From contig JBBAAQ010000001.1 in NCBI GenBank assembly GCA_041658255.1, positions 100,368 to 164,367 of the forward strand: DNA of 64,000 nucleotides, written 5' to 3'. The stretch comes from Candidatus Woesearchaeota archaeon (GTDB lineage Archaea > Nanobdellota > Nanobdellia > Woesearchaeales > UBA9642). Each line of letters opens with the position of its first letter. Position 1 is the first letter of the stretch. The position numbers and the translations under genes were made by a program. This document shows positions 35,101-62,300 of the stretch, piece by piece. Below the pieces are notes generated by a model, which had not been told where the DNA came from, made no database searches, and saw nothing but the letters and a program-made list of their open reading frames with translations.

Positions 35101-36980
35101 CAAGATCTATCCCGAACGGACTCACAACGTTTGAACGATTAAAAGCATACAATTCCAGCATCAAGACAGGCCTCGTCTACGGAAAACAAACACTCTATAT
35201 TCCTGACGGCATCTTAAGCAATGCAAAACCTGAAGTTGATTTCTGGAGGAATAAGACCACTAATTCCTACTGGACGAATTGGCCGTATAGTGGCGCGTGT
35301 TCATACCCGCAAAATGTTTCTCAGGCTGCAGCAGATTTCATTAATGAGTATTATAATGAATCATTCTACCTCGTAGTCTATTACGGTGTTCCCGATTGCA
35401 CAGGACACGTCTATGGGGATAATTCTACACAGTATGTTGAATCACTTATTGCTGTTGATGATGCGATAGGGATGCTCCTTGATATATTGGAATCTGCAAA
35501 TCTCAGCGGCAATTCCACGAATTCCATAGTAACTCAAATTATTGTATCTGCAGATCATGGATGGAATAGTAATACTACCGGACACGGGGTACGCAATAAT
35601 GATACGACAATATTGCCGTTATTATCCAATAATAATTTCCTCGTACTTGCAAGTGATAATCATACCCGCGCGCAATGCGATATTGCACCGACGATACTTG
35701 ACTATTTTGGTGTTTCTGAAGCTGCATATACTGATATTTTTGATAATAATTGTGAATCATTACGCTACTCGCCGCCAACGATTACCGTTCATGCGCCCAC
35801 AGGAACTTATACGGAGCTGCCGGTACCACTCAATATTTCGCTGAATGAAAAGGGTTCTTGTAATTATTCGATTGATACTGCCAGCGTTGTACTATTGCAA
35901 ACAACAACGAATATATCATTTTATGAATCTGTTGATGATATTGATTCAGGGTCGCATACAGTGATGTTTTCCTGCGTTGACCGTGCAGGAAATAGTGCAA
36001 ATATCAGCGCATCATTTACGTATACGCCTCCGTCCCGTCATAGCAGCGGTGGTGGAGGAAGTGGAGGCGGGGGCAGTAGTATAACAAGCACCATGCCTTC
36101 TATAAATAATACTGTGAATAATACTGTGCGTAATATGTCAATTCCTGCAGATACGCTTATTCGGACAGTAATCGCGAATACTAGTCATTCGTTTACTTCT
36201 GCCGCGTATGTCTTTACGAATGTATCTAAAGAATTTACGATAATTCTTGCGCGTAATGTGACGACGATTAATGAAACTTCACTTACAGGATTGCAGGTAT
36301 TATTTAATGGTACAAAGACTGTTGCCGTTACAGTCTATACGTATAATGATTCTGATTCGCGTGCGATTTCTGAAATAATAACCACTACCAATACGGTGTT
36401 TACTGGAGTGCCCTTTGCAGTATTTGCAATTGATCATCCAGAACTATCAGATGGAGAAATTATTAATGCATCACTCAATTTTAGCATTCCAAAATCTCTT
36501 CTAGAATCGTATACGAGTAATCCTGCAGATGTGCGATTATATCGATTGCAACAATCTGCTGGCAATTCTTCAAATGCGTGGATTGAACTCAAAACCACAC
36601 TCGTATATGCAACAGATACTGCATATTACTATGTCGCTCAATCCCCCGGTCTGAGTATGTTTATTATTGGAACAAGTACGAAACTCGAACTTCCTTCACA
36701 ATCATTAATCCCCCTGCCGAAATCGCGTATAACACCCGTATTTCGCATCCTTAATGACACTAACTATTCTCGTGCGAAGAATGATTCAGTGAATGATTCT
36801 TTGAATACTTCTGCCCGGAAGCCAGCATCCATGCAGGATTTTTGGTCAACAATTATTTCTGTATCTTTCACGCCAGAACAACGCGTATATATATGGATTA
36901 TCAGGATCATTTGTATTACCGGGATATTAGGTATTTCAATCTATTATTGGATACATTTTCGTTCTCCTCGTTGTATATAA
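32112..36980 (+). CDS. secreted subtilisin-like serine protease (S8) with C-terminal Ig/PKD-like regions, an embedded alkaline-phosphatase-superfamily domain, a Gly-rich linker and a C-terminal TM anchor
   Basis: signal peptide; catalytic VIDSGID, HGTHVAG, GTSMAAPHVTG; later LIGIDGAQFAAF, DCTGHVYG, VSADHGW (type-I phosphodiesterase-like); GGGGSGGGGSS; C-terminal hydrophobic IWIIRIICITGILGISIYYWI. Confidence 0.8.
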   Translation: MVKQQIYTKRGLLLTRRLMSHIQIRIALTFLLCILGVFTVAAQSSTLKTALSANTSTEPMAVIVVIEKPQPIVGVQSSLMKSASRARAAVATPVSETPTRIIDSLGKELTLHTEYSIINGFSGTITANGIAELEKLKKSGTRLTIYPDTVFYLQAIRDPRPILALNVSTNAIRANEARNTYNVSGRNITVAVIDSGIDYTHPALGNCTMMGSNCRVRDGYNFVNNTATPIDDNGHGTHVAGIIGANDSTTSFIGIAPDVNFYALKVCNAAGECATSAMINALQWAIDHNADVISMSIGASYSYDPLGNSGLDVISRAVNAAIAAGIPVVIAAGNDGLGIGTIAVPAAARDVITVGGIDDHNTVATSDDSIADFSSGPSAFGRFDPELVAPSVGIISTVPTGSCVNCAPGRYLGLTGTSMAAPHVTGVVALLREKNPSLSPGIIRGLLMHAARSITGSVYDKGTGVVDALTIFEPRIIISVQNENTVGSIVSTDRAELLLIPNRSVSFNLALDATTVQSIGLNYTFNITLDDLVAFDTGAILNASVCAIPLEASILVSSSTTLNISCIFTNTSAVYASTYAGILHLNGTGHNSSVTIPMQYAIPIVITIPFQYTVNVSRQLLHSGSTSGGAYYSTGDVFTYAYYNPKSGNETIRINWTNPTDDIDLYVYNASGNIDVYAGWAAGLPYEYVESNTTTSIKWIRINGYEFATAPLSFTLTVTDNNNRAPNNLVITNQTGGTMLYFLNGTNITILINATDPDNDTLIFSCNDTAYALQDSGPAYARYTRYANNTLIGNHSITCTATDPYGLSISTNATITVTNNSLIITQVTPTPGEYSILKNSSLILNYTAINLEGNALNSSWYVDTELVATNTSIFTFEGANWTVGTHIVTVNITNNHSTASYEWSVAINQTFLSVNYLRKQVILIGIDGAQFAAFNRLYTQGNLTNMMRLIATDGWMGTAQITGHTATETAPGNAELHTGLNETYTTISNNWYVPENTRSIPNGLTTFERLKAYNSSIKTGLVYGKQTLYIPDGILSNAKPEVDFWRNKTTNSYWTNWPYSGACSYPQNVSQAAADFINEYYNESFYLVVYYGVPDCTGHVYGDNSTQYVESLIAVDDAIGMLLDILESANLSGNSTNSIVTQIIVSADHGWNSNTTGHGVRNNDTTILPLLSNNNFLVLASDNHTRAQCDIAPTILDYFGVSEAAYTDIFDNNCESLRYSPPTITVHAPTGTYTELPVPLNISLNEKGSCNYSIDTASVVLLQTTTNISFYESVDDIDSGSHTVMFSCVDRAGNSANISASFTYTPPSRHSSGGGGSGGGGSSITSTMPSINNTVNNTVRNMSIPADTLIRTVIANTSHSFTSAAYVFTNVSKEFTIILARNVTTINETSLTGLQVLFNGTKTVAVTVYTYNDSDSRAISEIITTTNTVFTGVPFAVFAIDHPELSDGEIINASLNFSIPKSLLESYTSNPADVRLYRLQQSAGNSSNAWIELKTTLVYATDTAYYYVAQSPGLSMFIIGTSTKLELPSQSLIPLPKSRITPVFRILNDTNYSRAKNDSVNDSLNTSARKPASMQDFWSTIISVSFTPEQRVYIWIIRIICITGILGISIYYWIHFRSPRCI

Positions 36981-44935: not shown

Positions 44936-45436
44936 GTGAAAGGTCTTTCAAAAAAGGAAGTTGAAATTATTGCGCATCTCGAATTTGAGCAAACGTATTT
45001 CTTTACACGAGAGACCATCAAACAATTCTTCGAAACGCCACAGCACATTTCTGACTTCATATTTGGGCTGAGAACAAAAGGTCGGGTTATCAAGATAAAC
45101 CGCGAAAAATATTATCTTATACCAATAAAATCGCGTAGTGGAGGATGGTCAGAACATCCTTTTATTCTTGCAGATGAGATATGTGATGGCAAAGATTATG
45201 TTATCGGCGGATGGGCGGCAGCAAAATATTGGAAACTTACAGAACAAATACCTGCGCAGATAGATGTATATACTACAAAGAGACAAGGCACTTATAATAT
45301 AATGAATATGCGGTTTGTGTTTCACCGGACAACTGTTCGAAAAATACGTAGTGGAGTCAAGAAAGCGATAGAACAACATCCCTTCGCAATTATTTCAAAA
45401 GACGAGGCTAAACAATGGTACAGACAGAGAAAGTAG
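44936..45436 (+). CDS. AbiEi-like antitoxin / transcriptional regulator (putative)
   Basis: 166 aa; overlaps the start of an AbiEii-like NTase gene, as in type IV AbiE TA loci. Confidence 0.5.
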   Translation: MKGLSKKEVEIIAHLEFEQTYFFTRETIKQFFETPQHISDFIFGLRTKGRVIKINREKYYLIPIKSRSGGWSEHPFILADEICDGKDYVIGGWAAAKYWKLTEQIPAQIDVYTTKRQGTYNIMNMRFVFHRTTVRKIRSGVKKAIEQHPFAIISKDEAKQWYRQRK

Positions 45437-45846
45437 ACAAACAATTTATTGCAGACTTAGTCGGAAAAACTTCATTTAACGAGACGCTTCTCGCTAAGGA
45501 TTATTATATCACAAGAATACTCTATCTTTTAAAAGATATAAAGGGAATATATTTCAAAGGCGGAACAGCGCTTCAGAAAATATTTCTCAACCATTCACGA
45601 ATAAGTGAGGACATAGACTTTACACTAAAAAAATCAGTCTCAGAAATTAGGAAGGAGATAACGCAGATAATACATTCATCAAAATTATTTGGGACGAATC
45701 CGTTTAATCCCTTGTATTGCGGCATTTCTGATTTCGGGGTCCGCACTTACCGGACATATTTTTGGATAGTGTGGTCCGTGAGTAAGAAGATATTTACTGT
45801 TTTTCTTCATATTCCGACCAATCGACATGCCACATATAATTGCTAA
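45415..45846 (+). pseudogene. AbiEii-like nucleotidyltransferase toxin, 3'-truncated (only ~90 aa of the NTase N-terminus is intact)
   Basis: YFKGGTALQKIFLNHSRISEDIDF is the AbiEii/DUF1814 signature; the reading frame then degenerates where a minus-strand transposase remnant begins. Confidence 0.55.
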
Positions 45847-46234
45847 TTGGCCACTGATAACGAACATATGTGCGTTGTCTCCTGCGATTAACACAGGGTT
45901 CAGTCAATCCTTCCGTATCAAGAATTTTTTGTATTTGACGTTGAGAAGCAGTAAAACCAGCTCTTTTCAAAACATAATGTAATTTTTCTGCACCATAATC
46001 ATCACGACGTCGAATATCAACAACCCTCTTAACAAACGATTTGTTTAATGGCAAAGGAGGTCTACCGACCTTCTTTACCACATAAGCTAAGATGCCTTTT
46101 CGTTTAAATTTATCAGCCAAATAGTAAACCATTTGTCGACTTACTTTTTGAACACGTGCAATGCTTGTTGCACTCTTATTTGCACGAAACTGTTGAATAG
46201 TCCACTTACGCTTCTTTTCGGTCAATTTTTCCAT
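45685..46234 (-). mobile_element. IS transposase remnant (HTH N-terminus intact, DDE region frameshifted/truncated)
   Basis: 146-aa ORF with an HTH (IARVQKVSRQMVYYLADKF) ending around W-H-V-D-W-S; downstream coding continues in another frame (45685..45894). Confidence 0.5.
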
Positions 46235-46356: not shown

Positions 46357-47376
46357 TTGAGTATATTATTGCAAATGAAAAAAAACAAGCTATTATTCGC
46401 TGCGGAACAATTATTGAGTATTAATTTACACGTAAAAAGAACCGATATACTTTTGCTTATTTATGATTCACAAACGAAAAACTTCTTTACCTACATAAAA
46501 AAAATTCTTGCTGAAAAAAAAATAGTGTATTATGAACACGTACTTGACATGTATTCAAGACCTGCAATCATGACTCCCGCAATGGCAAATAAACTAAAAA
46601 TATGTACGATTACAATCTATGGCTGTAAATGGGTTTTTGGCGAACATGAATCGTTTGCGTCACCATTATTACGTTTAGTAAAAAAATATCAGATTACACA
46701 CGTACATATGCCGGGATTAAATGATGCAATTATTAGATCAGGATTATCTGTAGATTACACAAAAGTTGCACAGTTTACCCGTAAGATCCATCAAAAGATG
46801 TTGCATAAAAAAAGCATGGTAATACAGAGTGCTGCAGGAACAAATTTAACCATTTTATTCAACCCCAACTATACGTTTGTTGCTGATGATGGAATCTTTC
46901 ATAAGGGCGGCTTAGGAAATCTTCCAGCAGGAGAAGTATTTACTTGCCCGCAACAGGTTAACGGCGTATTATGTGTTGATGGCGTTATAGGCAATCTTGT
47001 ACACCTCGACCAAAAATCACTACAAGCAACTCCGCTCAAAATAGTTATAAAGAATTCTCGGATCGTCGCTATATCCTCAAAAAATAAGAAACTCGTTACT
47101 GCATTTAAAAAAACGGTGTATAGTTGCAATAATGGAGATCGAGTAGGGGAAGTTGCTATTGGTACAAACATCTACATCCCGCAATTATTGTATGAACCAT
47201 TACACGATGAAAAATTTCCTTCATTTCATATGGCGTTTGGCGATCCAATCAGTACATTAACGAAAGCTACATGGAAAAGCAAGATACACGTCGATTGCAT
47301 TATTCTTAAGCCAACCATCATTCTTGATTTAGAACTAGTTATGGATAATGGAATATTTCAACATACTCATAATTGA
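46357..47376 (+). CDS. aminopeptidase, M29 (AmpS/aminopeptidase T) family
   Basis: NLPAGEVFTCP, GEVAIGTN, DEKFPSFHMAFGDP match conserved M29 blocks. Confidence 0.6.
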   Translation: MSILLQMKKNKLLFAAEQLLSINLHVKRTDILLLIYDSQTKNFFTYIKKILAEKKIVYYEHVLDMYSRPAIMTPAMANKLKICTITIYGCKWVFGEHESFASPLLRLVKKYQITHVHMPGLNDAIIRSGLSVDYTKVAQFTRKIHQKMLHKKSMVIQSAAGTNLTILFNPNYTFVADDGIFHKGGLGNLPAGEVFTCPQQVNGVLCVDGVIGNLVHLDQKSLQATPLKIVIKNSRIVAISSKNKKLVTAFKKTVYSCNNGDRVGEVAIGTNIYIPQLLYEPLHDEKFPSFHMAFGDPISTLTKATWKSKIHVDCIILKPTIILDLELVMDNGIFQHTHN

Positions 47377-48314
47377 ACAATAACATCAGAATTTTTTATA
47401 TACTTACGATATGGAGTACTATTAGTATAAATGCCTTTTTTTGTAGTGAACTGTTTTTTTACATTAAAAGAATCAGTCGTGGTTATACGAATAAATGACG
47501 AGCGGAGTAAAATATCTTTTTCATATGTGTTGAATTCGTCATATAAAAAATCAATATAGCATCCGCATCGAATAATGATTTTTTGTATTTCATAAAGCAA
47601 GTATTTTGTAGTATGTTTACAATAATCCACTTCTAGAAAATTAGGCATGCTCAAGTAAATATGACGACCGGGTTTTTTCTTCAGCAGACGCAATGATTGA
47701 TAAAGGAATAATTTTAATCCTTCAAGGCTATAGGGTGGATCAATAATAACGACGTCAAATGTATTAGTATGCATAGACATGTCTAATCTAAAATCAGCAA
47801 AAACAGTACGAACAGCAGGCATGGCACTGCGTATTTTATTAAGAACGCGTTTATCAATATCAAAAACAGTAATATTATTCATCTTGAATTTATGAAGCCA
47901 GAATGAATTAAAATCAGAATCTCCTAATATTGCAACGGCATTCTTTTGGTCATATTGTTCTTGAGCAATAATTCTCGTTCGTGCAAAAGCTGTCGCCTTT
48001 GTTGCACGAGTTTGATCAATACATTCATTATCAGAAGGTAGATCTTTATAAAAGGATTGTATTGTAACAGAATCGATGACCGCATACGGTTTTTTTGAAT
48101 GAGCAGAATTTTTCGATAACAAATACTTATTGAGTAGTTGTTCTGATTTTTTTGTGATTTGTAAACCGGATTTATTTTTTCGGAGGTAACCTTTTAGCAA
48201 TAGTGTATTTTGTAATTCTTTACTTGTAATACTAGTATTAGAAGTTTTTGCAGAGCAAACTGTATCTAATACATGGATAAGATCACGAATATCGATATAT
48301 GATTGATGCTTCAT
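47367..48314 (-). CDS. class I methyltransferase-fold protein with a DPPY motif and N-terminal wHTH-like region (DUF43/aminopropyltransferase-like?)
   Basis: VVIIDPPYS; AILGDSDFNSF; ATGA-style overlap with the upstream MetRS-like gene. Confidence 0.45.
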   Translation of the reverse strand: MKHQSYIDIRDLIHVLDTVCSAKTSNTSITSKELQNTLLLKGYLRKNKSGLQITKKSEQLLNKYLLSKNSAHSKKPYAVIDSVTIQSFYKDLPSDNECIDQTRATKATAFARTRIIAQEQYDQKNAVAILGDSDFNSFWLHKFKMNNITVFDIDKRVLNKIRSAMPAVRTVFADFRLDMSMHTNTFDVVIIDPPYSLEGLKLFLYQSLRLLKKKPGRHIYLSMPNFLEVDYCKHTTKYLLYEIQKIIIRCGCYIDFLYDEFNTYEKDILLRSSFIRITTTDSFNVKKQFTTKKGIYTNSTPYRKYIKNSDVIVQL

Positions 48315-49618
48315 AGTGTGCTACCTGTCATAAGCATAGTAATACTATTTTTTTGATCAGTAACAAAAGGCGTCAACATGTAATCAAGGGCGTTGAAAAG
48401 AGTTGTTTTATAAGAGTTATCCCAATTATTCGAATGTGCAAGTACCCTGAGTTGTTTTGAAATATTAAAAATTTCGTCGACAGCCTTATCTAATCGATAG
48501 TGATTCATTGCGTTATCGTACTGCACAACATGTGTAACATATTCTTCTTTAGAAAGTTTAACAACAGGTTGGGCGAAATATTTTTTTAACGGAGCAAATT
48601 TATTATGCACAAGTCGTTTGAATGCAACATACTCATCTTCAGTAAATGTTGAATTATTAAAAGGATTTTTTTTGTAAAATAAGTAGAGACGTAAATAATC
48701 TGCTGAGTCTGTTTTTAGTATGCTGTCAAAAGTAGTATTGAATTTAGTCTGAAAATAGCCGTGAAATAATATGTCTTTAGGTAACGGCTGGTCTAATGCC
48801 TCTAATAATCCAGGATAATTAATGAGATGTGGTAGTAATGTCGTTGGACCGCACACATGAATGTTGGTGGTTTTGTCATTGGCAAAGTGCAAATCGGTTG
48901 GTTGAATATATCCGATTAATGCATCAAACCACGAATATAATCGCGATCCGTCACAAAGTATTCCTTGCACATTTGAATTGCGGGTAATACAAAAGTCCTT
49001 TAAACCTTCCCGGATACTATTACGTAACTCGATCTTACGACTTTCAGGAAATACGTGTATGACGTTTAGCGCAGTTATGATTGCATCAGAATATTTAGTA
49101 GTATCAAAAAAGACTGCGGTTTCGGAATGAGTTATAGTTTCAACAGGGTTCTTTTTACGTATTCGTTGACTAATAAATGAACCAGTTAATGGATCATAAT
49201 CCCCGCGATACTCTCCAACATATAAATCGTGGTGTTCTTTTAAGAGCATATACGCATCTTTTACCGCAGCAATATGTTCTGAAGAATATGTTTTAACAGT
49301 GATAGTATTATGAGGTGCTAACACATCAAGTAGTGATTGCATTTTATTTCGATATTCAAAAAGATGCTCTTCCACAGCACCATCGCGCGGGATAGCGCAC
49401 GTATTTTCGTCCAGTCCATAAATATACTTGCACAGATGTTGATTATTTATAAAATATTTCTTGATAATATCGCTCATCACCATTTCATAGATGATCCCAA
49501 TATGTATCGGGCTTCCTGATTCTACAAAATCGGAGAAAATAGCATAATTAGCCATTGACCTTACCTTCAGAATACCAATATTTGATGAGTTCTTCAAGTA
49601 AATGGAAGTATAATTCAC
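48311..49618 (-). CDS. class I aminoacyl-tRNA synthetase-like paralog, MetRS-like catalytic core with a degenerate KMSKS (probable start at Met22, 49555)
   Basis: PIHIGIIYEMV (HIGH-like), LYSWFDALIGYI (MetRS YVWFDALxxY block), LFHGYF; no Zn knuckles or anticodon-binding domain apparent. Confidence 0.5.
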   Translation of the reverse strand: MNYTSIYLKNSSNIGILKVRSMANYAIFSDFVESGSPIHIGIIYEMVMSDIIKKYFINNQHLCKYIYGLDENTCAIPRDGAVEEHLFEYRNKMQSLLDVLAPHNTITVKTYSSEHIAAVKDAYMLLKEHHDLYVGEYRGDYDPLTGSFISQRIRKKNPVETITHSETAVFFDTTKYSDAIITALNVIHVFPESRKIELRNSIREGLKDFCITRNSNVQGILCDGSRLYSWFDALIGYIQPTDLHFANDKTTNIHVCGPTTLLPHLINYPGLLEALDQPLPKDILFHGYFQTKFNTTFDSILKTDSADYLRLYLFYKKNPFNNSTFTEDEYVAFKRLVHNKFAPLKKYFAQPVVKLSKEEYVTHVVQYDNAMNHYRLDKAVDEIFNISKQLRVLAHSNNWDNSYKTTLFNALDYMLTPFVTDQKNSITMLMTGSTL

Positions 49619-50837
49619 AAGAATAAGGTGTTTTACAACGTGAGGGTTCGCTAGCAGGCATATTTAATGCGCGATCTAAGCAACCACCCCCGCAGGCAAC
49701 TTTTATACTACAAGAATTACAATGTAATAATTTATTATACAACGTATGAATATGTGCTATTTTCGATGCAGAAAGTTGTAACTTATTCTTTTTTTGATCA
49801 AACATTCCAACGATAAATGTGCTACTTAATGGATGATTTGCATATGAGCATTCAAAACATTTTGATACGCTTCCATCGGGATTTATAACAAAAAAATCAT
49901 CCTTAAAAATTGGGCAAGTAATAGGAGTCTCTAATAAAAAATGGGTGTAAACAAGATTAAACACAGTCATTCCGCGCGTTTTACCATATTTAATCATTTT
50001 TACAAATGTTTTTGAAAATTCTTTAGGATTGCAGACAAATGAATTATTTTTTCCCCGCCCCGCAGCTAATATCGGTTCTGCATGTAAGAATCGCACACCG
50101 AATTTAGCATAATAATCGATAATTTTTTTGTATTCTTTTAACATCGGTGCAGTCATGGTTATCCTGACTTTAAAGAATGCGTTATTTTTGACAAGATACG
50201 CTGCGGTTTTTTCTACATTGCTAACACTAGATGATCCATTAACAAATGGCCGGTTTTTCGATTGATATAAACCATCCCAACTAAAATTAATGATGAATTT
50301 ATTTGCAATGATAAAATCTGCAAATTTTTGCGAAAAAACCCCGTTGGTTGATATTGAAAAAGAGAACTCTTTATCGCTAAATTGTTTGCAATATTCTACT
50401 ATAGATTTTATTGTAGGATAACATAGAGATGGTTCCCCTCCAAAGAAATTTAGAACATATTTTTTCTTATTTAATGCAATTCTATCTGACAAAATTGCAA
50501 TAATTGTTTCTTTAGTTAATATTGTTTTCTCGCTATTTGCATCAATAAAGCAATATACGCACTTCAAATTACATGCTTTTGTCAGGGTGAATGCAATATA
50601 GGAAGTATCCGCATCAGCTAAATGTGTTAATGGATTTTGGAGCGAATTATGTTTTAATAAATTTTTTAATTCTCCTGCAATATGCTCTTTAGTTTGAGTA
50701 GCGTCAAATTCAACTATCTCTTTAGTAGACCCTAAATATACTAAATACTTATTTCGATATTTAACTAAAGGTAATCCTAGTATCGAATCCATAACCCCCT
50801 CACAATAATAAAAAAGAAATAATAAATTTACGAACAC
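49548..50837 (-). CDS. radical SAM enzyme with a C-terminal SPASM domain (peptide-modifying maturase-like); probable true start ATG at 50792
   Basis: CNLKCVYCF (CxxxCxxC); C-terminal Cys cluster CNSCSIKVACGGGC...C..C; annotated start is GTG. Confidence 0.8.
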   Translation of the reverse strand: MFVNLLFLFYYCEGVMDSILGLPLVKYRNKYLVYLGSTKEIVEFDATQTKEHIAGELKNLLKHNSLQNPLTHLADADTSYIAFTLTKACNLKCVYCFIDANSEKTILTKETIIAILSDRIALNKKKYVLNFFGGEPSLCYPTIKSIVEYCKQFSDKEFSFSISTNGVFSQKFADFIIANKFIINFSWDGLYQSKNRPFVNGSSSVSNVEKTAAYLVKNNAFFKVRITMTAPMLKEYKKIIDYYAKFGVRFLHAEPILAAGRGKNNSFVCNPKEFSKTFVKMIKYGKTRGMTVFNLVYTHFLLETPITCPIFKDDFFVINPDGSVSKCFECSYANHPLSSTFIVGMFDQKKNKLQLSASKIAHIHTLYNKLLHCNSCSIKVACGGGCLDRALNMPASEPSRCKTPYSCELYFHLLEELIKYWYSEGKVNG

Positions 50838-50914
50838 ATATTAGACAAATTAGCAAATTTCTCTAATTCTTCTTGTTTTCCTAACACGTTATTGGATAGT
50901 TTTACAACTTTCAT
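50828..50914 (-). CDS. 28-aa candidate precursor peptide MKVVKLSNNVLGKQEELEKFANLSNMCS
   Basis: strong SD GAGGGG 7 nt upstream of the ATG; lies immediately upstream of the rSAM/SPASM gene; C-terminal Cys-Ser. Confidence 0.4.
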   Translation of the reverse strand: MKVVKLSNNVLGKQEELEKFANLSNMCS

Positions 50915-51142
50915 GTTTTCGCCCCTCGATTAATGAAATTATAATCGATAATAATAGTGTAGTTCTGTTATTTATATACCTTTCGCTTTTTAACACGTAT
51001 ACCCCGTAAATTTTCCGGTTCTAATTCACAATATTAAAATACTTCTTCTGCTTTAGGATAGTAAGATTGTGCATACTATTTAAGTGCGCTCCGAATCGTA
51101 TACACGCGAGACGATTATTATGCTCGGAATTATTCTCTCCTC

Positions 51143-51820
51143 TCAGAATTGATTCAGACTCTTCTGTTTCAATTTAATATTGTATGACTCAGGATTGATG
51201 ATCATGTCGTCCTTTGCAGCAAGGATTTGCGTCTTGAATGGAATGTTTTTTTCTTGGAGCAATCTCTTTATCTCTCGCGTTACTTCTAATGGATCTTTGA
51301 CATCATGAGTAAAGTTTGTTAAGATATACAGTTCAGGATTGATCTGTTGTACTAATTCTACGATTTGTTCTTTGCTTAATGTATGTTCTCTGCTCGAATA
51401 TTCGCTGATGATGATATTGGTGTCTTTCAACTCCTCAGCAAGTTTTTTCGTGTAAGTGATTGTTGTGAAGTACGTGAGCATATATTTATGTGTTTTTATC
51501 TTAAATGCTAAAGAATCAAGTTTTGTCTGGATGAAGATAATATCCTTTTTTGGTTCTGGATTCTTTGGAGTGATAAACCTTGCGTGAGATATCTTCTGGA
51601 GATATGCTGCATCATTCGTGTAGATATCGTCTTCTTCTGTCGCAAGGATGAAATCTAATTCCTCGATTTTAGCTTGAAGTTTGGCGAGTTGAATGATTGA
51701 GCCGATTCCCGGATTGATAAGAATTTTCTGTTCATTGACGAGGAGAATCCCGCCTGCACTGCGCCCCTTTTGCATACTTTGGTAATCACTTCCACTTCCT
51801 AAGAAAATGATCTGCGACAT
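51143..51820 (-). CDS. hypothetical protein with a weak metallo-beta-lactamase-fold-like N-terminus lacking HxHxDH
   Basis: IIFLGSGS..GRSAGGILLV..ILINPGIGS pattern; no His cluster. Confidence 0.35.
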   Translation of the reverse strand: MSQIIFLGSGSDYQSMQKGRSAGGILLVNEQKILINPGIGSIIQLAKLQAKIEELDFILATEEDDIYTNDAAYLQKISHARFITPKNPEPKKDIIFIQTKLDSLAFKIKTHKYMLTYFTTITYTKKLAEELKDTNIIISEYSSREHTLSKEQIVELVQQINPELYILTNFTHDVKDPLEVTREIKRLLQEKNIPFKTQILAAKDDMIINPESYNIKLKQKSLNQF

Positions 51821-51892: not shown

Positions 51893-52013
51893 CATGAGTG
51901 CAGTATTCATAGCAATGATTGCTGTTAAAGTCAATAATGTGTTTTTGAGTTTACTCATACTTTCTCTAGGATGTTACTATTTATAAAGTTTACTGAAGTT
52001 ACCACTAGAAAGG
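51893..52013. repeat. 121-nt duplicate of the promoter plus signal-peptide 5' end of the gene at 52744..54204, copy 1 (encodes a 25-aa remnant MSKLKNTLLTLTAIIAMNTALMKLL on the minus strand)
   Basis: ~85% identical to 54139..54259. Confidence 0.7.
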
Positions 52014-52294
52014 AGCAACATAGAAAGATTTATATATGTGTTATCACATACTTATGTGTAAAGGTGATCATTATGAGTAATATAACATTATCAATGCCAA
52101 ACGATGTTCATTTGCAGATGAAAGAATTTTCCGAAGTGCGATGGAGTGAAGTTGCGCGTAAAGCGATTATAGAAAAACTTGAAACATTGCGCATGGCTGA
52201 ATCGTTAGCGAAAAAAAGCAAACTTACAGAAAAAGATGTTCAAGATTTTAGTAAAAAAATTAATACCCTTGCTACAAAGAGGATTATGAAATGA
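51971..52294 (+). CDS. antitoxin-like small protein (VapB/RHH-type); probable start 52073 after an AAGGTGA SD
   Basis: MSNITLSMPNDVHLQMKEFSEV..; stop overlaps the PIN gene start (ATGA). Confidence 0.5.
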   Translation: MLLFIKFTEVTTRKEQHRKIYICVITYLCVKVIIMSNITLSMPNDVHLQMKEFSEVRWSEVARKAIIEKLETLRMAESLAKKSKLTEKDVQDFSKKINTLATKRIMK

Positions 52295-52719
52295 ATATTG
52301 TTCTAGATTCGAACATACTCTTTTCAGCACTCATTAAAAATTCTACAACTAGAAAAATAATTCTTGATTATGACGGATTCTTCCTCTTTCCATCATACAT
52401 ATTTATCGAGATGGAACATCATAAAGATGAATTATACAAAAAATCTGAACTTTCAGAAAAAGAATTCGATGATCTACTCCATTTAATTCTTTAAAAAGTA
52501 TTAATCGTACCACACGCAGTCATACAACCGCACATTAAAGAAGCAATTATTATTGCTCAACCTATCGATATCAATGATATGTTATTCATCGCATGCGCAC
52601 TCGCATATCATAAAAGCATCCTCTGGTCGAATGATAAGAGATTAAAAACACAATCAAGAATTCGCGTGTTGAATACTCGAGAAATAATTTTATATTTCCA
52701 GGAAAAACAAAAATCTTGA
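52291..52719 (+). pseudogene. vapC: PIN-domain VapC-like toxin interrupted by an in-frame TAA at 52492-52494
   Basis: N-terminal MNIVLDSNILFSAL (PIN Asp box); the same frame continues after the TAA: ..DINDMLFIACALAYHKSILWSNDKRL.. to a TGA at 52717. Confidence 0.55.
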
Positions 52720-54326: not shown

Positions 54327-57300
54327 TTGATAAAAAGTAGTGTGAGGCGGTTGATGATGAATAAACGCGTACTATATTTATTCTTTTTATTATTTATTTT
54401 AGGGATGTTATCTATTTTTATTATTCCTTATGTTTCTGCTGCTACAGCTGTTGCGGGTGATGAAGGTAGTGGTGGTGGTGGTACTTGTATTCCTACTACT
54501 TGTACTGCTTTGGGTAAGACTTGTGGTTCTTGGAGTGATGGGTGTAGCGCAACATTGAACTGTGGTACATGCAATTCTGGGTATACGTGTACGAGTGGTC
54601 AATGTGTTGCTGATGCAACTTCATGCACTACCACTGGTTGCTCTAATGGATATATTTGTGATCTTTGGGGTGGTGTATTTGCATCACCCTATTGTAGTTG
54701 TCCGAGCGGAACAGTACAAATTACTCATTATGATTATACTCTTAATAGAACGATTATTGATAGAACATATACGGGATATCAGGGGTGTAGTGTTGAAGTT
54801 TCCCCGGGTGTGTGGACTCAAATACAATGTGTAAATACTCAAACAGATAGCCAGAATTGTGGTTGGTGTGGGAATGCTTGTTCATCAGGTCTTTCCTGTG
54901 TTAGTGGTAATTGTCAATGCCCGACAGGTCAGACATTATGTAATGGTGCATGTGTAGGTACTGTTAGCGATCCTGCTAATTGTGGCAGGTGCGGCAATGT
55001 TTGTTATGCGCCTAATACGAAATGTTATTCAGGGTCTTGCGTGCAATGTATAAAAGCAATATTTGATTGTCCTGATGGACCTTATGAGTGTATAAATAAT
55101 CGATGTGTTCTACGTTGTGAAAGTCCAAATTTTTGTGGACCGGTAAATTCACTTAATACGGATTCTGATGAAGATCGCAAAGCCAATTGTGTAGGATCAG
55201 ATTGGTGTCTTTCATGCATTAACGGTTATGCTAATTGTAATGCGAATAGTGGTTGCGAGACAGACATCACTACAACAAGTAATTGTGGAAGTTGCGGGAA
55301 TGTATGTACTGCATCAAATCGTTGTCCTGCAGGTACAAGTACACTATTTTATATCTCTCCGACATGTAGTGGTACTTGCGGTACAGTATCGACTGGAAGT
55401 AGTCCATGTGCATCATCTTCATATTGTTCAAATAATATTTACTATATCCAACCCGGAGTATGTAATGGTCTGGGAACAGCATGCGCATTAGGTATAGCAC
55501 AGGCGCAACCAAGACTTGGAGAAACAAAGAGCTGTATTGATTCTTCCACACTTAGAACGACAACGTATAATACCTGTGATGCAAATGGGTATATAGGAAC
55601 ATCTAACGATGTGAATTGTCCTGTGGTTTATGGTGCTGGTTGGACTTGTCAAGTTGTTTTTGGTGTTCCCCAATGTAAGAGGCCACAAACTTTCTGGTGG
55701 AAAATGGATTCTGATGGCGATGGACATTATGTTGGTTCAGCAGTGGAAAGTAGTACATCTCCTGGAACAGGATATGTGGTTGTTTCTAGTCAAAATGTGC
55801 TAAGCGATGATTGTAATGATAATAACGCCGCTATCTATCCTGGAGCGACTGAATTATGTAATGGTGTTGATGATAATTGTGTGAATGGTGCTGATGAAAC
55901 TTTTGCACTTGGTGAAGTGTGTTCTTCTCCTGCAAATAATTGTGGCAAGACTAGTCTCGGGAATACAGTGTGTAATACTGCGCAAACTGGCGTAACTTGT
56001 AATGCTCAGAAACCTGCTGACGCATCACCTGCACCAAACACACCATATACTTCTCCTGCAAATAATTGTGGTGCTACCAATACTGGCGTATATGTATGTA
56101 ATGCAGATAAGATAAGTACCTCAGGCAATGTTCAGAAGCCTGTTGATGCTTCTCCTGCTCCGAATACTGCGTGTACTTCTGCTCCGAATAATTTAGGCGC
56201 TACTGCTTCTGGTTATTATCAATGTAGTGCTGATAAACTTTCTACTTATTGTAATGCAGTAAAGCCTGCTGATGGGTGTTCAGGCACTCCTCCAACAACA
56301 TCGTGTGGTACGTGTGGAACAATGACTGCTCTGTGTAGTGGAACAATCTGGACGTATACTGGTGCATCTTGTTCGTCTACAGGTACAACGCAACCACAAT
56401 CCTGTCTTGCAGTTAGTGGTTGTTCTGGTTCATTGACACAGACATGTACACTTCAAGGTTCGAATTATAATTGGGTTAGTGGTTCATGTTCATCATTATT
56501 AAATTATTGTGCAGGTACATGTATTGCTGCAGCATGTTGCACATTGAATTCAGAGTCATGTAATGGTGCCGACGACAATTGTAATGGTATTATTGATGAT
56601 CCTTGGAAGAGTGGTAGTCCAAAACTTGGTGATTCATACACTTCTCCTGCGAATTCTTGTGATGCAAAAAATTCTGGAACATGGGTGTGTAACAATGATG
56701 GTTCTGGAATAACAGGTAGTGTTGCTGCACCTGCAAATCCTTCTCCTGCTCCAAATACTGCTTGTACGTCTTCTGCAAATTCTTGTGGTGCGACAAATAC
56801 TGGAACATATTTATGTGCTGCTAACGGACTCTCAACTTCTTGTTCTGCTTTCGCACCTCCAAATCCTTCACTTGCTCCAGGAACTGTATGTACTTCTCTT
56901 CCCAATAATTTAGGTGCTACTGCTCAAGGTCAGTTTCAATGTAGTGCTGATAAACTTTCTACTTATTGCGATGCCATAACTCCTGCTCCTGGATGTACTG
57001 GTTCTGCGCCTACAACATCGTGTGGTACGTGTGGAACAATTACTGCTCTGTGTAGTGGAACAACATGGACGTATACTGGCGCAACTTGTTCAGCTACTGG
57101 TAATACGCAACCACAATCGTGTCTTGCAGCTAGTGGTTGTTCCGGTTCATTGACACAGACATGTACACTTCAAGGTTCTAATTATAATTGGGTTAGTGGT
57201 TCATGTTCATCATTATTAAATTATTGTGCAGGACAATGTACAAATCAATCGTGCTGTTCACTTCTTTCAGAATCGTGTAATGGTGCCGACGATAATTGTA

Positions 57301-60300
57301 ACGGTATTATTGATGATCCTTGGAAGGCTCCTGCTAATCCAAAACTTACTGATGTATGTACTGCAACAAATATTTGTGGTACAAATACTGGCGCGCAGGT
57401 CTGTACAGTTGATGGTACAGGAATAACTTGTTCTGTAACTCCTCCGGTGATGCCACTTAATTATGGGACACCTTGTAATTCTACTCCAAATAATTGTGGG
57501 ACTACAACTCCCGGAACTATAAAATGCGATGGAACATGTTCAGCGACTAAACCTCTTGATGTTGCAAGTTGTTGTGCAGGTACTCCTGCATCAAGATCAT
57601 GTACTGATCCTAATTGTGGTACTCAAACACAATTATGTTCAGGATCTGTATGGACTTATACTGGCGCATCATGCGCAGGTACTGGTGCTACAACAACACA
57701 ACCCTGCACGATCAATAGTTGTTCTGGAACGCAATCACGTAATTGTCAGTTAAGTGGTCTCTGGACAGGATGGGGTACATGCGTTGCAACTAATCCTCAA
57801 CAAGAAACCTGTAATGGCGTAGATGATAATTGTGATAGTAAGATTGATAATGAATTATCCCTTATTTCACGATCATGTACTGTTGGTAATGGTTCATGCA
57901 CGCGCACAGGAACGCAGACACAAGTATGTAATGGTATTTCTGGTCTAGGTTGGGGTGTATGTAGTGTAACACCTGGAACTCCAACAGCTGAAACATGTAA
58001 TAATATAGACGATAATTGTGATGGAACAGTTGATGAATGGCCAACATGTAATATTTGTGGCGATAATCGTTTAGGTGGTAGTGAGCAATGTGATGATGGA
58101 AATACAGTAAGCGGTGATGGTTGCAGTGCAACTTGTAGAACAGAAGGTGATGGTTCATGTAATAGTCTTTGCGGATTATTATTCCCTGCATGCCAATCAG
58201 GATTTTCTTGCGAATGGTCTGGGATAGTACAGCGTTGCAGAAATACTGCTTGTTCAACAGATTCAACATGTGGTTGTTGTACTCAATCCGGATGTAATGA
58301 TAATAATGGATGTACAACTGATGTGTGCACTACTGGTGTTGGTTGTAGTAATGCTGCACGTACTGGTGCATCATGTGGTACAAATCCTTTGGCATGTAGT
58401 GAAAATCTTGCAGTTATCAAGAATTATGCATGTAGTGCGACAGGTTCATGTGATGATGCTCTTGCATCAGACACTACAACAAATTGTGGTAATACGAATT
58501 ATTGTTCAGGATTTACTAATACATGTGTTGCATGCGCGTCTAATACTGCAAATTGTGATCAGGCTAATGCTGACTGTGAATCTCATTTATTGACTGATAT
58601 GAATAATTGTGGAACATGCGGGAATAAGTGTGGTGCAAGCCAGACATGTAGTGCAGGATCGTGTGTTACACCAGGTACATGGTATCGCGATGTTGATGGT
58701 GATGGCTACGGTACTCCTGCAAATTCAGTACTCAATCTCACTCAACCTGCAGGGTATGCAAATAATCCTGCTGATTGCAATGATAATAATTTTGCAATTA
58801 AACCGACTGCAACAGAATATTGTGACACTATAGATCAAAATTGTAATGGATTAATCGATGAAACATGTGATAAAGATGGTGATATGTATGCTGATCCTAC
58901 ACTTGCCTGTGTGGGAAGTTTTAGGGCAGGAAATGGTTTAATCTATGGTTGCGCGACTAATGGTCTTGACTGTAATGATAATTCTGCAACAACTTATCCG
59001 AATGCTCCAGAGATCTGTGGTGTCCGTGGTGGTAACGGGATCAAGGAGAATTGTGCTGCCAGCGTAGCAGATGTTGGTTGTAGTATTTGTGGTGATAAAA
59101 CCATCAATACACCCAATGGTCTTGGAGTAAATGAGGAATGTGATTATGGCTCGTGGTGTATGACAAATTTAGGAGTTAAAACTGTTTGTTCGCAAGATAC
59201 TGATTGTGCAGGGATCGGCGACGGATTATGTCTTCCGCGTGACAGTGTGAATTGTTCAGCACAATGTATGAGTACTGGTTGTGCTATCACTGGTCTTAGT
59301 ATTACTCCTATTGATTGTCAAGATAGAGCTATCGATGAAAAGATTTGTACAACAGGAAACACACTCAATATTTCGATACAATTTAGCGGCGCAGATTGCG
59401 CGAAAGCAAATATTGTACAAATAGACTACCATGATCAAAATAGAACATGTATGATTACTACTACCAGTACGCAAATTTTGGGGATAACAAAATCTTTCTT
59501 TACCGGAGGAAATGGAACATATGTATTTACCTATGTATTCCCGACAATACCTTCTTCATGTAGTGGTGCACCACTTAAACAGGCAGAAGCAGGGCTCTAT
59601 ACCGGAAACATTGCAAATATGCAAACAACATGGATTCAAAGAACAAACAGTATCGCTCCATTCCCAGGAATAAGCCCGACAGTCATACTTTATGATGCGT
59701 CACAACTCTGTACTGCAACTTGTCCGGAAGCTGCAATACTTGCAAACGAATTAGGAACATATACTGATATTGCAACTGCAGTAAAAACAAATCCTGCAGC
59801 AAAACAGAAATTTATGAACTTCCTGAAGAACGAAAATTGTTTCACGAGAAGCGCGCAAAAACTCAGAAATGCATATTGTGGTTTTGAAAAAAATACTGCT
59901 ACGAACGTCATTACTTATAAAACAAATACTACAGTAAAAATAGGGTTACCGTCACTAAAAGAAATAGAAGCGTCATGTACGATATTATATCCTATCGGAG
60001 CAGCACCAACGATTAGCGTCAGTGCAAAAGGCGGGTCTGGAACATACCATTATGCATACACATTTGGAGACGGAAAAACAGTAAATAGTACCACATCAAC
60101 TGCTACGATACCCAATGCGACACAAACGACAGGAGGATATGAACCAAGAGTTATAATAACTGATAGCAAAAGGAATACGAGAGAAATTGTTTGTCCAAAA
60201 ATTAATATAACCAGCACCGATTCATCTTCCAGAGGGTATTGTGGTGATGGAAAATTAAACGATGGTGAATATTGTGATTACGCAAACACTACAATGGTTT

Positions 60301-60616: not shown

Positions 60617-61015
60617 GTGCCTGAATTCGAGGTAACACTTATGGACAAAACAAATTATGCATTAATCTTGATTGTAGGAATTGTTGCAGTTGTCGGTATT
60701 GTTGCGATGATTGTGGCAACATCCTCATCAAATACTGAAGTATCTTCGAGCATCACGGGTAATGTTGTTGATGTCCCAAAAATTACTACACCAACAATGG
60801 CACAAGTCCAGTGTACTGATGGTAATGATGATACGACTGATGGTTGTGTGAATTATATGAACGCGCGATGCGGGGACGGATATCTCTACGCCGGTGTCGA
60901 ACAATGTGAGACAACAACACTGCAGGGACAATCGTGCCAGAGTTTCGGATATGCGGGCGGAGCATTGAGATGCACACAAGATTGTGTCTTTGATACGAGC
61001 GAATGTTATAATTAG
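60617..61015 (+). CDS. small membrane-anchored Cys-rich protein (CGDG-type Cys-rich repeat)
   Basis: N-terminal TM; RCGDGYLYAGVEQCE..QSCQSFGYAGGALRCTQDC. Confidence 0.5.
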   Translation: MPEFEVTLMDKTNYALILIVGIVAVVGIVAMIVATSSSNTEVSSSITGNVVDVPKITTPTMAQVQCTDGNDDTTDGCVNYMNARCGDGYLYAGVEQCETTTLQGQSCQSFGYAGGALRCTQDCVFDTSECYN

Positions 61016-62042: not shown

Positions 62043-62300
62043 CTCATCTCGTGCTAGACTGGGCGGTTAGTCCTCGCCTGTTACTCCAAACGGACTTTAG
62101 GGAGGGTCGAAGCCTAGGGAGCGGTTTTATGGATAGTGGCAGTCCTTAACGTACTGTCGATCCTTTGTCCTCTTTGACTTTTTTCCTTACGAACCGGATC
62201 AGACCAGGAATGGAGCAGTCCTCAGTTTTGAGAAGGGTGCTTTGAGGGTTGCGGAGGGGAGGGAAATTAAGGAACCAACTGTTCACTATCCACATCATCC
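62043..62300 (+). ncRNA. ffs: candidate SRP RNA (GC-rich island with a domain-IV-like motif)
   Basis: ccGGAUCAGACCA-GGAA-UGGAGCAGUCC resembles SRP helix 8 (GNRA-type loop, 5' UCAG / 3' AGCAG asymmetric loop); pyrimidine-rich strand opposite GGAGGGGAGGG suggests G-U-rich helices; local GC far above background; boundaries approximate. Confidence 0.45.

Follow-up and report, generated by a model that had tools for sequence, protein, structure and literature searches.

A methionyl-tRNA synthetase-derived paralog without a KMSKS loop, encoded between radical SAM and BpsA-fold genes in a Candidatus Woesearchaeota genome

Analysis of the window (the whole stretch of DNA studied, 64 kb, from a Candidatus Woesearchaeota MAG) showed a run of closely packed genes around a paralog of methionyl-tRNA synthetase (MetRS). 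The MetRS-like protein is deposited at NCBI as MFA5796574.1 under the name "class I tRNA ligase family protein", within the series MFA5796572-MFA5796576 (locus tags around WC916_00880), and three gene callers and NCBI agreed on its start codon. As read from the sequence, the operon has the order candidate 28-aa peptide, radical SAM (rSAM)/SPASM enzyme, MetRS-like protein and BpsA-fold transferase, and it meets a convergent M29-like peptidase gene. The genes and the upstream element are the following:

50968..50978, minus strand: TATATAAATAA, TATA-box-like archaeal element, putative operon promoter, read from the sequence
50828..50914, minus strand: small ORF of 28 aa, MKVVKLSNNVLGKQEELEKFANLSNMCS, candidate precursor or scaffold peptide, first cistron, unannotated
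49548..50792, minus strand: radical SAM/SPASM enzyme, 414 aa, with the cluster motif CNLKCVYC and SPASM cysteines
48311..49618, minus strand: maximal ORF of the MetRS-like gene, uninterrupted, reaching GTG 49618
48311..49555, minus strand: CDS of the MetRS-like paralog, 414 aa, called start ATG 49555, stop 48311
47367..48314, minus strand: BpsA-fold (PF01861) SAM/dcSAM-dependent transferase-like protein, 315 aa, 64.9 bits
46357..47376, plus strand: M29-family aminopeptidase-like gene, convergent, PF02073, 9.4e-13

The stop codon of the rSAM gene overlaps the start of the MetRS-like gene (ATGGCTAA), which bears out the operon with a radical SAM enzyme proposed in the initial annotation, and the MetRS-like stop overlaps the BpsA-like start in an ATGA. 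Overlapping stop and start codons of this kind (translational coupling) suggest joint production of the three enzymes, which may then work in one complex. The small ORF is found upstream of the rSAM start, at a distance of 36 nt. A GAGGGG motif precedes the small-ORF ATG by 7 nt and recurs ahead of the rSAM ATG, while the TATATAAATAA element stands ~55-60 nt upstream of the small-ORF ATG. The small ORF gave no family match and no conservation of it was found, so it is treated as a candidate only. The SPASM cysteines of the rSAM protein read, from the translation, C-x13-G-x4-C and C-x2-C-x5-C-x3-C. The protein ran near full length on SPASM maturase models, each below its equivalog cut-off, with a PapB-type ranthipeptide maturase as the best match (112 bits, cut-off 340), and no PqqD/RRE peptide-recognition element was matched. 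The BpsA-like protein matched BpsA 5xnc with E 6e-8. In BpsA, the GDDD motif is indispensable and the C-terminus carries an acidic carrier cluster (PMC12979288); the neighbour protein has the PF01861 fold in common with it but reads GDSD in place of GDDD and has a basic C-terminal tail. The 3' end of the M29-like gene overlaps the BpsA-like gene by 10 nt, and this gene is possibly part of the pathway.

The GC content of the operon region was 0.33-0.35 compared with 0.38-0.40, and its flanks held toxin-antitoxin genes, a truncated AbiEii gene and a transposase-like HTH remnant. No T-box or riboswitch was found near the operon with Rfam, whose sole match in the window was the archaeal SRP RNA. 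AlphaFold2 run without an alignment on the upstream 225-aa protein gave no usable model (pLDDT 41.7). A defence-system reading was dropped because PADLOC and PHROGs returned nothing for the MetRS-like protein and only generic viperin/rSAM matches for the rSAM protein.

The homology of the MetRS-like protein to MetRS is far beyond chance. It matched Pfam PF09334 (tRNA-synt_1g) with E 8.5e-21 and 74.6 bits (threshold 20.1), the NCBIfam MetRS models with E 9e-32 and, in the PDB, S. aureus MetRS 7wpi with E 1.1e-18. Every family match was to MetRS, with none to MshC or GluQRS and no Pfam match to cyclodipeptide synthases. The scores were below all equivalog cut-offs of NCBIfam/TIGR (110.4 vs 598, 101.2 vs 336 and 50.6 vs 587). 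Identity to 60 canonical MetRS was 19.9-25.4%, compared with a mean of 35.5% within the canonical set, and of the 76 MetRS positions with a conservation of 80% or more, only 40 were kept. The nearest subtype was the short one-knuckle MetRS, not the E. coli or P. abyssi type, and the closest named canonical relative was a DPANN (Aenigmarchaeota) MetRS, MCX8179079.1.

A canonical MetRS of 497 aa aligned with the gene across canonical residues 14-445. The ORF stays open in DNA of 33-34% GC, where we estimate the chance of 414 open codons at ~1e-14 (~7% of random codons being stops at this composition). A tblastn search with five canonical MetRS led to a single contiguous locus and found neither a second MetRS-like piece nor a canonical MetRS in the 64-kb window, by which a split or fragmented MetRS was ruled out. 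An assembly artefact was also rejected, because the DNA of the locus was 100% identical in three independent assemblies. The initial proposal of a MetRS-derived paralog, neither a pseudogene fragment nor one half of a split MetRS, is thus supported.

Residues of the MetRS-like protein were compared with those of 67 canonical MetRS, including the short DPANN-type, in E. coli numbering. The numbering of the E. coli reference used for this was confirmed at 17 literature positions. The motifs and the C-terminal domain lie as follows:

49493..49504, minus strand: HIGH-motif remnant H18-I-G-I21; H21, G23 and E27 kept, H24 replaced by Ile
48905..48940, minus strand: LYSWFDALIGYI block, methionine-pocket helix, residues 206-217; W253, D255, A256 and Y260 kept
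48728..48763, minus strand: HGYFQTKFNTTF, at the place of the KMSKS loop, residues 265-276; 9 residues shorter
48314..48670, minus strand: residues 296-414, a compact bundle of five helices with homology to the MetRS anticodon-binding domain

The PIHIGI motif that had been pointed out earlier was found at residues 16-21 (49493..49510), and the LYSWFDALIGY / LYSWFDALIGYI block likewise. The claimed absence of KMSKS and of the zinc knuckles also held, with a loop 9 residues shorter than in the 67 canonical MetRS and no zinc-ligand cysteines in the connective-peptide (CP) hairpin. The fourth HIGH position is variable in some canonical MetRS too (HIGN, HIGT, HIGS), while K332, S334, K335 and S336 were 100% conserved in all 67; K332, S334 and K335 are replaced by T, F and D in the MetRS-like protein. 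The sole Lys of the loop region, K271 ("KFNTT"), is offset from K332 by 3 residues. In the AlphaFold2 model, this region is predicted as a strand at 268-271, a 4-residue loop and a helix from 276. In MetRS, D52 anchors the alpha-amine and W253, A256, Y260 and H301 form the pocket of the methionine side chain. All five are present here, with changes around them (Y15 to Glu, W305 to Tyr and I297 to Thr). The adenine side is partly retained (H21, G23, E27 and H323-G324), while the ribose ligands K295-D296 are replaced, D296 by Thr/Asn, as is N17.

The AlphaFold2 model (pLDDT 89.2, pTM 0.90) placed five helices past residue 306, and in Foldseek the whole model superposed on full MetRS cores with TM 0.75-0.83, including 0.81 over 445-480 columns. 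Tested alone with an HMM for the C-terminal domain of canonical MetRS, residues 296-414 scored 18.5 bits, where the best of 200 shuffles reached 6.5. These results contradict two statements of the initial annotation, that the protein lacks an anticodon-binding domain and that it is a stand-alone catalytic core, since a helical bundle follows the catalytic part. As modelled, the protein retains the whole MetRS architecture (Rossmann core, cysteine-less CP hairpin, stem-contact region and helical bundle), and its small size comes from trimmed loops, with no domain missing. The short one-knuckle MetRS (S. aureus 7wpi/7wpl, A. aeolicus 2csx and Aenigmarchaeota MCX8179079.1) have the same four-part fold at full length, and share with it the five methionine-pocket residues named above, H21, G23 and W461. 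Among the anticodon readers, W461 is kept (as W378), whereas Arg takes the place of N391 and Asn that of R395. No anticodon-reading residue is conserved family-wide, because N391 and R395 are replaced here and W461 is not retained in the relative P0002.

P0002 was the one family member found in an exhaustive HMMER search of 1.84 billion representative proteins; among the other listed matches, all those inspected had a KMSKS-type motif or were too short to reach that site. It is encoded on a 1.7-kb contig, has 35% identity over query residues 193-400, and is a fragment or chimera without the Rossmann N-terminal half and W253. An ATGA overlap joins its gene to a downstream BpsA-like gene whose N-terminus is collinear with that of the BpsA-like protein in the window (score 55, against 28.9 +/- 5.6 for shuffles, 1 of 2000 of which reached that score). 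The motifs FHGYF.T.F...F and CGP.TL..HLI.YP are common to P0002 and the MetRS-like protein. The strongest family-specific conservation was in a surface block at residues 291-319, YLF[YH][KN]KNP..NS.F.E.EY..FKR, and not in the catalytic motifs; no loop-region Lys is conserved between the two members, K271 being N in P0002. Conservation arguments are thin, because two members are known and one of them is a fragment or chimera, and the finding is a lead rather than a result, as it comes from one genome and one fragment.

Word-indexed searches with the MetRS-like protein, a two-sequence profile and the BpsA-like protein returned only the query and P0002. A pattern scan of GTDB genomes gave two canonical MetRS (L004 and L005) and a short match (L006), while the pattern scan of JGI metagenomes and the search of IMG/VR viral contigs with the MetRS-like profile and the BpsA-like protein gave no match. 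Literature searches showed no MetRS paralog described with a radical SAM or BpsA-like linkage. The rSAM protein matched one 25%-identical maturase (L007) in metagenomes, in an unrelated cluster for a Cys-rich peptide with no MetRS-like gene in its neighbourhood. The linkage of the rSAM and MetRS-like genes is known from one genome.

Loss of the KMSKS loop, together with an operon shared with an rSAM enzyme and a polyamine-synthase-like transferase, a non-translational context that sets the gene apart from canonical MetRS, indicates that the MetRS-like protein almost certainly does something other than translation. With H24, K295-D296 and two of the three anticodon readers also lost, it is almost certainly not the Met-tRNA synthetase of the cell. 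The reading we tentatively favour, while holding it open to considerable doubt, is that of a ligase or tailoring enzyme that recognises an amino acid, needs no tRNA and works outside translation, in an accessory biosynthetic operon. Such an enzyme would still recognise methionine or a close analogue and would ligate the carboxyl of this amino acid, with no tRNA involved, to an acceptor amine or hydroxyl made or presented by the operon partners, which could be a peptide modified by the rSAM enzyme or whatever the BpsA-fold transferase makes. The residual K271 may stand in for the KMSKS lysine. The model is provided by MshC and by the MetRS-like domain of the hydrazine synthetases, which work likewise, and by analogy with them, especially the latter, a non-translational ligase role is plausible. 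In favour of this ligase reading are the MetRS homology and fold, the retained pocket residues, the overlapping genes of the operon, the BpsA-like gene that also follows P0002, the precedent of the hydrazine synthetases and the identity of the locus in three assemblies. Against it stand a loop shortened by 9 residues rather than merely mutated, the replacement of D296, a K271 that is out of register and not conserved in P0002, a small ORF for which no conservation was found, a family of two members, an rSAM linkage seen in a single genome, and an acceptor substrate that cannot be named.

Paralogs of aminoacyl-tRNA synthetases (aaRS) have repeatedly been entry points to new chemistry, as in mycothiol, cyclodipeptides, queuosine glutamylation and N-N bond formation. 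To our knowledge, MetRS-derived enzymes outside translation are known so far only from bacterial hydrazine synthetases, and the MetRS-like protein would be a second, independent recruitment of MetRS, this time in an archaeon whose genome is reduced. Class I enzymes as a rule need a KMSKS loop, and the catalytic site of this protein departs from the rule; we know of no class I enzyme documented to adenylate without this loop, and the protein, if active, would show how a class I site can work without it. The conserved pairing with a BpsA-fold transferase that lacks the BpsA hallmarks flags a second putative enzyme. MshC (Cys:GlcN-Ins ligase) and GluQRS are class I aaRS paralogs of the same concept, which load an amino acid onto a non-canonical acceptor. 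They differ in their origin (CysRS for MshC and GluRS for GluQRS, as opposed to MetRS here) and keep intact HIGH and KMSKS-type motifs.

The hydrazine synthetases (aaHS domain; PyrN, Spb40 and Tri28) are, like the MetRS-like protein, derived from MetRS and recruited to specialised metabolism when the two are set side by side by their descriptions, and the layout of Rossmann, CP, KMSKS-domain and helical-bundle parts is common to both. Their MetRS-like domain is ATP-dependent and tRNA-independent, with KFSTG in place of KMSKS and an essential K458 (PMC8664883; bioRxiv 10.1101/2025.08.22.671884). The reaction of the domain is the O-aminoacylation of a hydroxylamine. It retains the helical bundle and is closest by sequence to MetRS of the P. 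abyssi/E. coli type (bioRxiv 10.1101/2025.08.22.671884), so that the MetRS-like protein comes from another MetRS subtype. KFSTG resembles KFNTT, but the latter sits 3 residues out of register in a shortened loop, whereas in the hydrazine synthetases the loop has its full length and canonical position, and HLGH, the ribose-binding Asp and Zn knuckles are all present. These enzymes are bacterial and ~550 aa long, compared with 414 aa for the archaeal protein. They also always come with a zinc-binding cupin, whether as a fused domain or as a separate protein, and with a Lys/Orn N-hydroxylase, and neither was matched by Pfam in any gene within ~10 kb on either side of the MetRS-like gene.

Because the KMSKS loop is deleted, a non-catalytic role is almost as likely as that of a ligase, although it too is to be regarded as somewhat unlikely. 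The protein would then be a pseudo-synthetase, a subunit that has lost adenylation and binds a ligand or confers specificity, its remaining methionine and adenine-side pockets serving for ligand binding alone. The ligand would be methionine, a methionine N-terminus, or methionine together with 5'-deoxyadenosine/MTA as by-products of the SAM-consuming partners; alternatively, the protein would hold its rSAM and BpsA-fold partners together as a scaffold, in the manner of HisZ. HisZ, a HisRS paralog, serves ATP-phosphoribosyltransferase. It has lost its catalytic residues and become a subunit of another enzyme, but the analogy is conceptual only, as HisZ belongs to class II (HisRS-like) and its partner, HisG, is known. 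The deleted loop, the replaced H24, K295 and D296, the lack of a loop Lys conserved between both family members, the surface block as the site of strongest family-specific conservation, and the tight translational coupling to two SAM-using enzymes all agree with a pseudo-synthetase. The retention of D52, H21 and G23, which matter mainly for placing a free amino acid beside a nucleotide, argues against it, and the aaRS-like genes of biosynthetic operons that have been studied (MshC and the hydrazine synthetases) are catalytic (PMC8664883). An inactive MetRS-like protein would be a rare class I pseudo-synthetase.

A broader and more doubtful proposal is that of a new enzyme family with a MetRS fold lacking the KMSKS loop, obligately linked with a BpsA-fold transferase and a radical SAM/SPASM enzyme and making a methionine-derived or methionine-tagged peptide product in DPANN. 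Methionine would be taken from Met-tRNA, or non-canonical activation chemistry would be used. The pathway, if this were true, would be the first RiPP-like one with an aaRS-derived tailoring enzyme of such a type, and among the few natural-product pathways known from DPANN.

It is improbable that the protein is an aminoacyl-tRNA-dependent transferase, which would bind ready Met-tRNA and pass methionine to a peptide or small-molecule amine by the logic of cyclodipeptide synthases. In its favour, the bundle is retained with W461 (W378), which stacks on C34 of the CAU anticodon, the methionine pocket has outlasted the ATP motifs, and cyclodipeptide synthases are established examples of a class I aaRS fold that evolved in this way. 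Cyclodipeptide synthases also have the class I Rossmann fold, with the amino-acid pocket kept and the ATP signature motifs lost, but they are derived from TyrRS/TrpRS, ~230-300 aa long, without a helical bundle and with HIGH wholly lost, whereas HIG and E27 are still present here. Also against it, N391 and R395 have become Arg and Asn, and W461 is absent from P0002. The bundle itself is not evidence of tRNA use, because the hydrazine synthetases keep it though they are tRNA-independent.

Still less probable is that the gene has no function or is in decay, as a duplicate of MetRS that drifts towards loss within an accessory island of low GC and mobile character. It would agree with the lower GC (0.33-0.35 vs 0.38-0.40), with the toxin-antitoxin genes, truncated AbiEii gene and transposase-like HTH remnant at the flanks, with a family almost unique among 1.84 billion representatives and with the truncated or chimeric look of P0002. 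Such a copy is opposed by 414 open codons in AT-rich DNA, precise start/stop overlaps with both neighbours, a confidently folded model and a 35%-identical relative. Because this relative shares idiosyncratic motifs and the downstream partner, long-term purifying selection is required. That the protein is a very divergent housekeeping MetRS of the organism, a reading to which the lack of another MetRS in the 64-kb window (a small part of the genome), the often fast evolution of DPANN proteins and the DPANN (Aenigmarchaeota) origin of the closest named canonical relative would lend some colour, is scarcely credible in view of the absence of KMSKS residues that are 100% conserved in 67 canonical MetRS, short DPANN-type included, of scores far under the equivalog cut-offs, of the loss of N391 and R395, and of an rSAM/BpsA-like operon inside an accessory island.

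The open reading frame read in the window at 48311 to 49618 on the minus strand was uninterrupted. The gene within it encodes a methionyl-tRNA synthetase (MetRS)-like protein (MFA5796574.1, named 'class I tRNA ligase family protein [Candidatus Woesearchaeota archaeon]' by NCBI) and likely starts at ATG 49555, as read from the sequence, giving 414 aa. This ATG was used by three independent gene calls and lay within the last codons of the upstream radical SAM (rSAM) gene (AAT GGC TAA, N G stop, against ATG GCT AAT, M A N), which bears out the operonic link to a radical SAM enzyme proposed in the initial annotation. The DNA of the locus was 100% identical across three assemblies, and the contig is archaeal, since it carried an archaeal SRP RNA at 62047 to 62320 on the plus strand (Rfam RF01857, 116.5 bits) and in view of the NCBI name. 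The motif PIHIGI (residues 16-21), the block LYSWFDALIGYI (residues 206-217) and the degenerate KMSKS region HGYFQTKFNTTF (residues 265-276) pointed out earlier were all found in the protein.

The MetRS-like protein matched Pfam tRNA-synt_1g (E 8.5e-21), four NCBIfam MetRS models (up to E 9e-32) and, in the PDB, the MetRS of S. aureus (E 1e-18) and A. aeolicus (E 4e-17), and on these scores its homology to MetRS is far above chance level. It was much closer to the short bacterial/DPANN MetRS subtype than to that of E. coli or P. abyssi, and the nearest canonical relative bearing a name was an Aenigmarchaeota (DPANN) MetRS. The protein passed the Pfam domain threshold but fell short on what defines a MetRS, having neither the KMSKS loop nor sufficient equivalog scores; curated MetRS models gave 110 and 101 bits against the required 598 and 336. 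Identity to 60 canonical MetRS was 19.9-25.4%, and these 60 shared a mean of 35.5% (minimum 25.2%) among themselves. Five canonical MetRS used in tblastn against the 64-kb window found a single contiguous one-frame locus and no canonical metG. A full-length MetRS rebuilt with neighbouring ORFs was rejected, since no second half was present in the window, and the earlier reading as a paralog rather than a split MetRS stands. A recent pseudogene, expected to be close to some MetRS and to carry stops, was likewise rejected by the low identity and the open frame; by our own estimate, 414 open codons would arise by chance in 33-34% GC DNA at ~1e-14. Judged on sequence, the protein is neither a housekeeping enzyme nor a fragment.

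The protein was aligned with 67 canonical MetRS from an exhaustive search and the E. coli enzyme, whose numbering, used here for MetRS positions, agreed with the literature at 17 positions once the usual offset of minus one was allowed for. All positions with conservation of 80% or more among the canonical sequences were audited (n=76), and 40 of the 76 were kept, among them H21, G23, D32, D52, E53, W253, D255, A256, Y260, G294, H301, H323, G324, R356 and W461. E27, on the adenine side, was outside the audited positions and aligned as kept (E24 in the protein's own numbering). Losses were Y15 to Glu, N17 to Gly, W305 to Tyr, K295-D296-I297 to Pro-Thr-Thr, K332/S334/K335 to Thr/Phe/Asp, N391 to Arg and R395 to Asn. 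The KMSKS loop, whose motif the initial annotation had reported missing, was both mutated and shortened by nine residues.

A confident AlphaFold2 model derived from an alignment of 61 MetRS sequences (pLDDT 89.2, pTM 0.90) placed a strand at 268-271, a four-residue turn, the helix that normally comes after the KMSKS loop, and five helices beyond residue 306. In Foldseek the whole model, which is biased toward the MetRS fold by its MetRS-based alignment, aligned to full MetRS cores (TM 0.81 for 7wpl), and all 50 hits listed were MetRS. Independently of the model, residues 296-414 alone gave 18.5 bits with an HMM built for the canonical C-terminal domain (best of 200 shuffles, 6.5), and thus the anticodon-binding bundle is present, contrary to its earlier reported lack. 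Zinc knuckles were absent, as had been stated. The protein owes its short length to a trimmed connective-peptide knuckle, KMSKS loop and first helix of the bundle.

The MetRS-like gene stood third among the cistrons of a compact unit on the minus strand, whose other members and flanks were as follows.

Features of the operon and its flanks
47367 to 48314, minus strand: PF01861 (BpsA_C) protein of 315 aa by Pfam, downstream of the MetRS-like gene, whose stop overlaps the next start as ATGA
49548 to 50792, minus strand: radical SAM/SPASM enzyme of 414 aa, upstream of the MetRS-like gene, with CNLKCVYC and a complete SPASM cysteine pattern
50828 to 50914, minus strand: candidate 28-codon ORF MKVVKLSNNVLGKQEELEKFANLSNMCS by sequence reading, ending 36 nt upstream of the rSAM start
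45415 to 46234 and 51971 to 52494: truncated AbiEii toxin gene, overlapping transposase-like HTH remnant and RHH/PIN toxin-antitoxin pair, flanking the operon

An M29-like aminopeptidase gene was convergent and overlapped the 3' end of the operon. GC across 46-54 kb was 0.33-0.35 against 0.38-0.40 around, and this drop together with the flanking genes is as expected of a putative accessory island.

The best matches of the rSAM enzyme were peptide maturases (PapB, nif11-type, anSME, HxsB and others), all under the equivalog cut-offs. The 28-codon ORF was unannotated, called by none of the gene callers and without a match in family searches. GAGGGG stood 7 nt before its ATG and also preceded the rSAM ATG; in the window, 4 of the 9 copies of this hexamer lay 3-7 nt before an ATG. 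A TATA-like TATATAAATAA, a putative promoter on sequence reading only, was ~55-60 nt upstream. The ORF, known from one genome, may encode a precursor or scaffold peptide, possibly of RiPP type.

The downstream protein, annotated as 'bis-aminopropyl spermidine synthase family protein', matched the structure of branched-chain polyamine synthase (BpsA; 5xnc, E 6e-8). In BpsA, GDDD is described as a motif the enzyme cannot do without, and the tail holds an acidic aminopropyl-carrier cluster (PMC12979288). Here, GDSD replaced GDDD and the C-terminal tail was basic, so the protein is probably no genuine branched-polyamine synthase and may take SAM in place of dcSAM or work on another acceptor.

A HMMER search of 1.84 billion cluster representatives found, besides the query, one true relative, P0002, 35% identical over query residues 193-400 (E 9e-29) and sharing the blocks FHGYF.T.F...F, CGP.TL..HLI.YP and YLF..KNP..NS.F. 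Each of the other listed hits that was inspected had a KMSKS-type motif or was too short to reach it. P0002 was encoded at 538 to 1503 of a 1.7-kb contig (L003) of only 28% GC. Its first ~110 residues were an unrelated signal/TM and beta-propeller-like segment in frame with the C-terminal half, and the Rossmann N-terminal half had left no trace in any frame of that contig; it appears to be an assembly chimera or else a remnant that was truncated and re-fused. Its gene was followed, via an ATGA overlap, by a gene with 63 known residues, collinear with the N-terminus of the BpsA-like protein (score 55; shuffles 28.9 +/- 5.6, with 1 of 2000 reaching it), a match that BLAST alone missed. The shared overlap and collinearity argue that the MetRS-like/BpsA-fold gene pair is probably conserved; linkage to the rSAM gene came from a single genome. 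No further members turned up in scans of GTDB genomes, JGI metagenomes and IMG/VR, and the family is represented by one genome and one fragment. All operon proteins were singletons at 90% identity, except for start-site variants of the peptidase.

This protein cannot go through the canonical class I cycle of MetRS, the residues that position a free amino acid whose side chain resembles that of Met are kept in the alignment, and the gene is co-translated with two SAM-using enzymes. Its chemistry we infer. Tentatively, a tRNA-independent ligase is preferred, because D52, which anchors the alpha-amine, and H21, G23 and E27 on the nucleotide side are kept, residues that a pure scaffold could do without. 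The preference also follows from the sole studied non-translational MetRS derivative, the MetRS-like domain of bacterial hydrazine synthetases (PyrN, Spb40, Tri28), being such an enzyme: it needs ATP but no tRNA and retains the helical bundle, and its KMSKS has shrunk to KFSTG, whose first Lys is essential (PMC8664883; bioRxiv 10.1101/2025.08.22.671884). KFNTT of the MetRS-like protein resembles this KFSTG. Counting against a ligase, the loop is truncated, K271 (own numbering) sits three residues off register, with Asn in its place in P0002, and the ribose-binding Asp is gone. These same losses make a non-catalytic pseudo-synthetase, though somewhat less likely, a serious rival. An aminoacyl-tRNA-dependent transferase, acting in the manner of cyclodipeptide synthases (CDPS), would be possible but fairly unlikely: of the three anticodon-reading residues, none was shared by both family members, and hydrazine synthetases keep the bundle although they use no tRNA. 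Decay without function is highly unlikely for so long an open frame, and a housekeeping MetRS extremely so at the curated-model scores.

Identity with CDPS, MshC or GluQRS was rejected on sequence. A hydrazine synthetase in the defined sense was also rejected, since the operon has no cupin or N-hydroxylase partner and the protein lacks Zn knuckles, derives from a different MetRS subtype and has a truncated loop. The protein is best described as belonging to a known phenomenon, aminoacyl-tRNA synthetase paralogs recruited to non-translational tasks. Two traits are unusual: a class I core without a KMSKS loop and a probably conserved partnership with a BpsA-fold transferase that lacks BpsA hallmarks.

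Upstream of the operon, a 225-aa orphan protein (51143 to 51820, minus strand; single-sequence AlphaFold pLDDT 42) had a faintly RNase Z/MBL-fold-like N-terminus (E 0.01) and no HxHxDH motif. Elsewhere, the window held two Fic-domain genes (19073 to 20362 and 61012 to 61923) and a full-length RelA/SpoT homologue with HD, RelA_SpoT, TGS and ACT domains (16538 to 18508, minus strand) on this archaeal contig; to our knowledge, long RSH enzymes are unusual among archaea. A strong match to CMAS (cyclopropane-fatty-acyl/mycolic acid cyclopropane synthase; E 7e-90; 1613 to 2728, minus strand) placed a bacterial-type lipid-modifying enzyme on a Woesearchaeota contig. A 1622-aa protein (32112 to 36980, plus strand) combined an S8 subtilase domain with a type I phosphodiesterase/nucleotide pyrophosphatase domain. 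A 2067-aa secreted, extremely Cys-rich protein (54327 to 60530, plus strand) contained MopE-type metal-binding repeats and long internal near-repeats, with ~85% identity between the internal DNA repeats of its gene on self-comparison.
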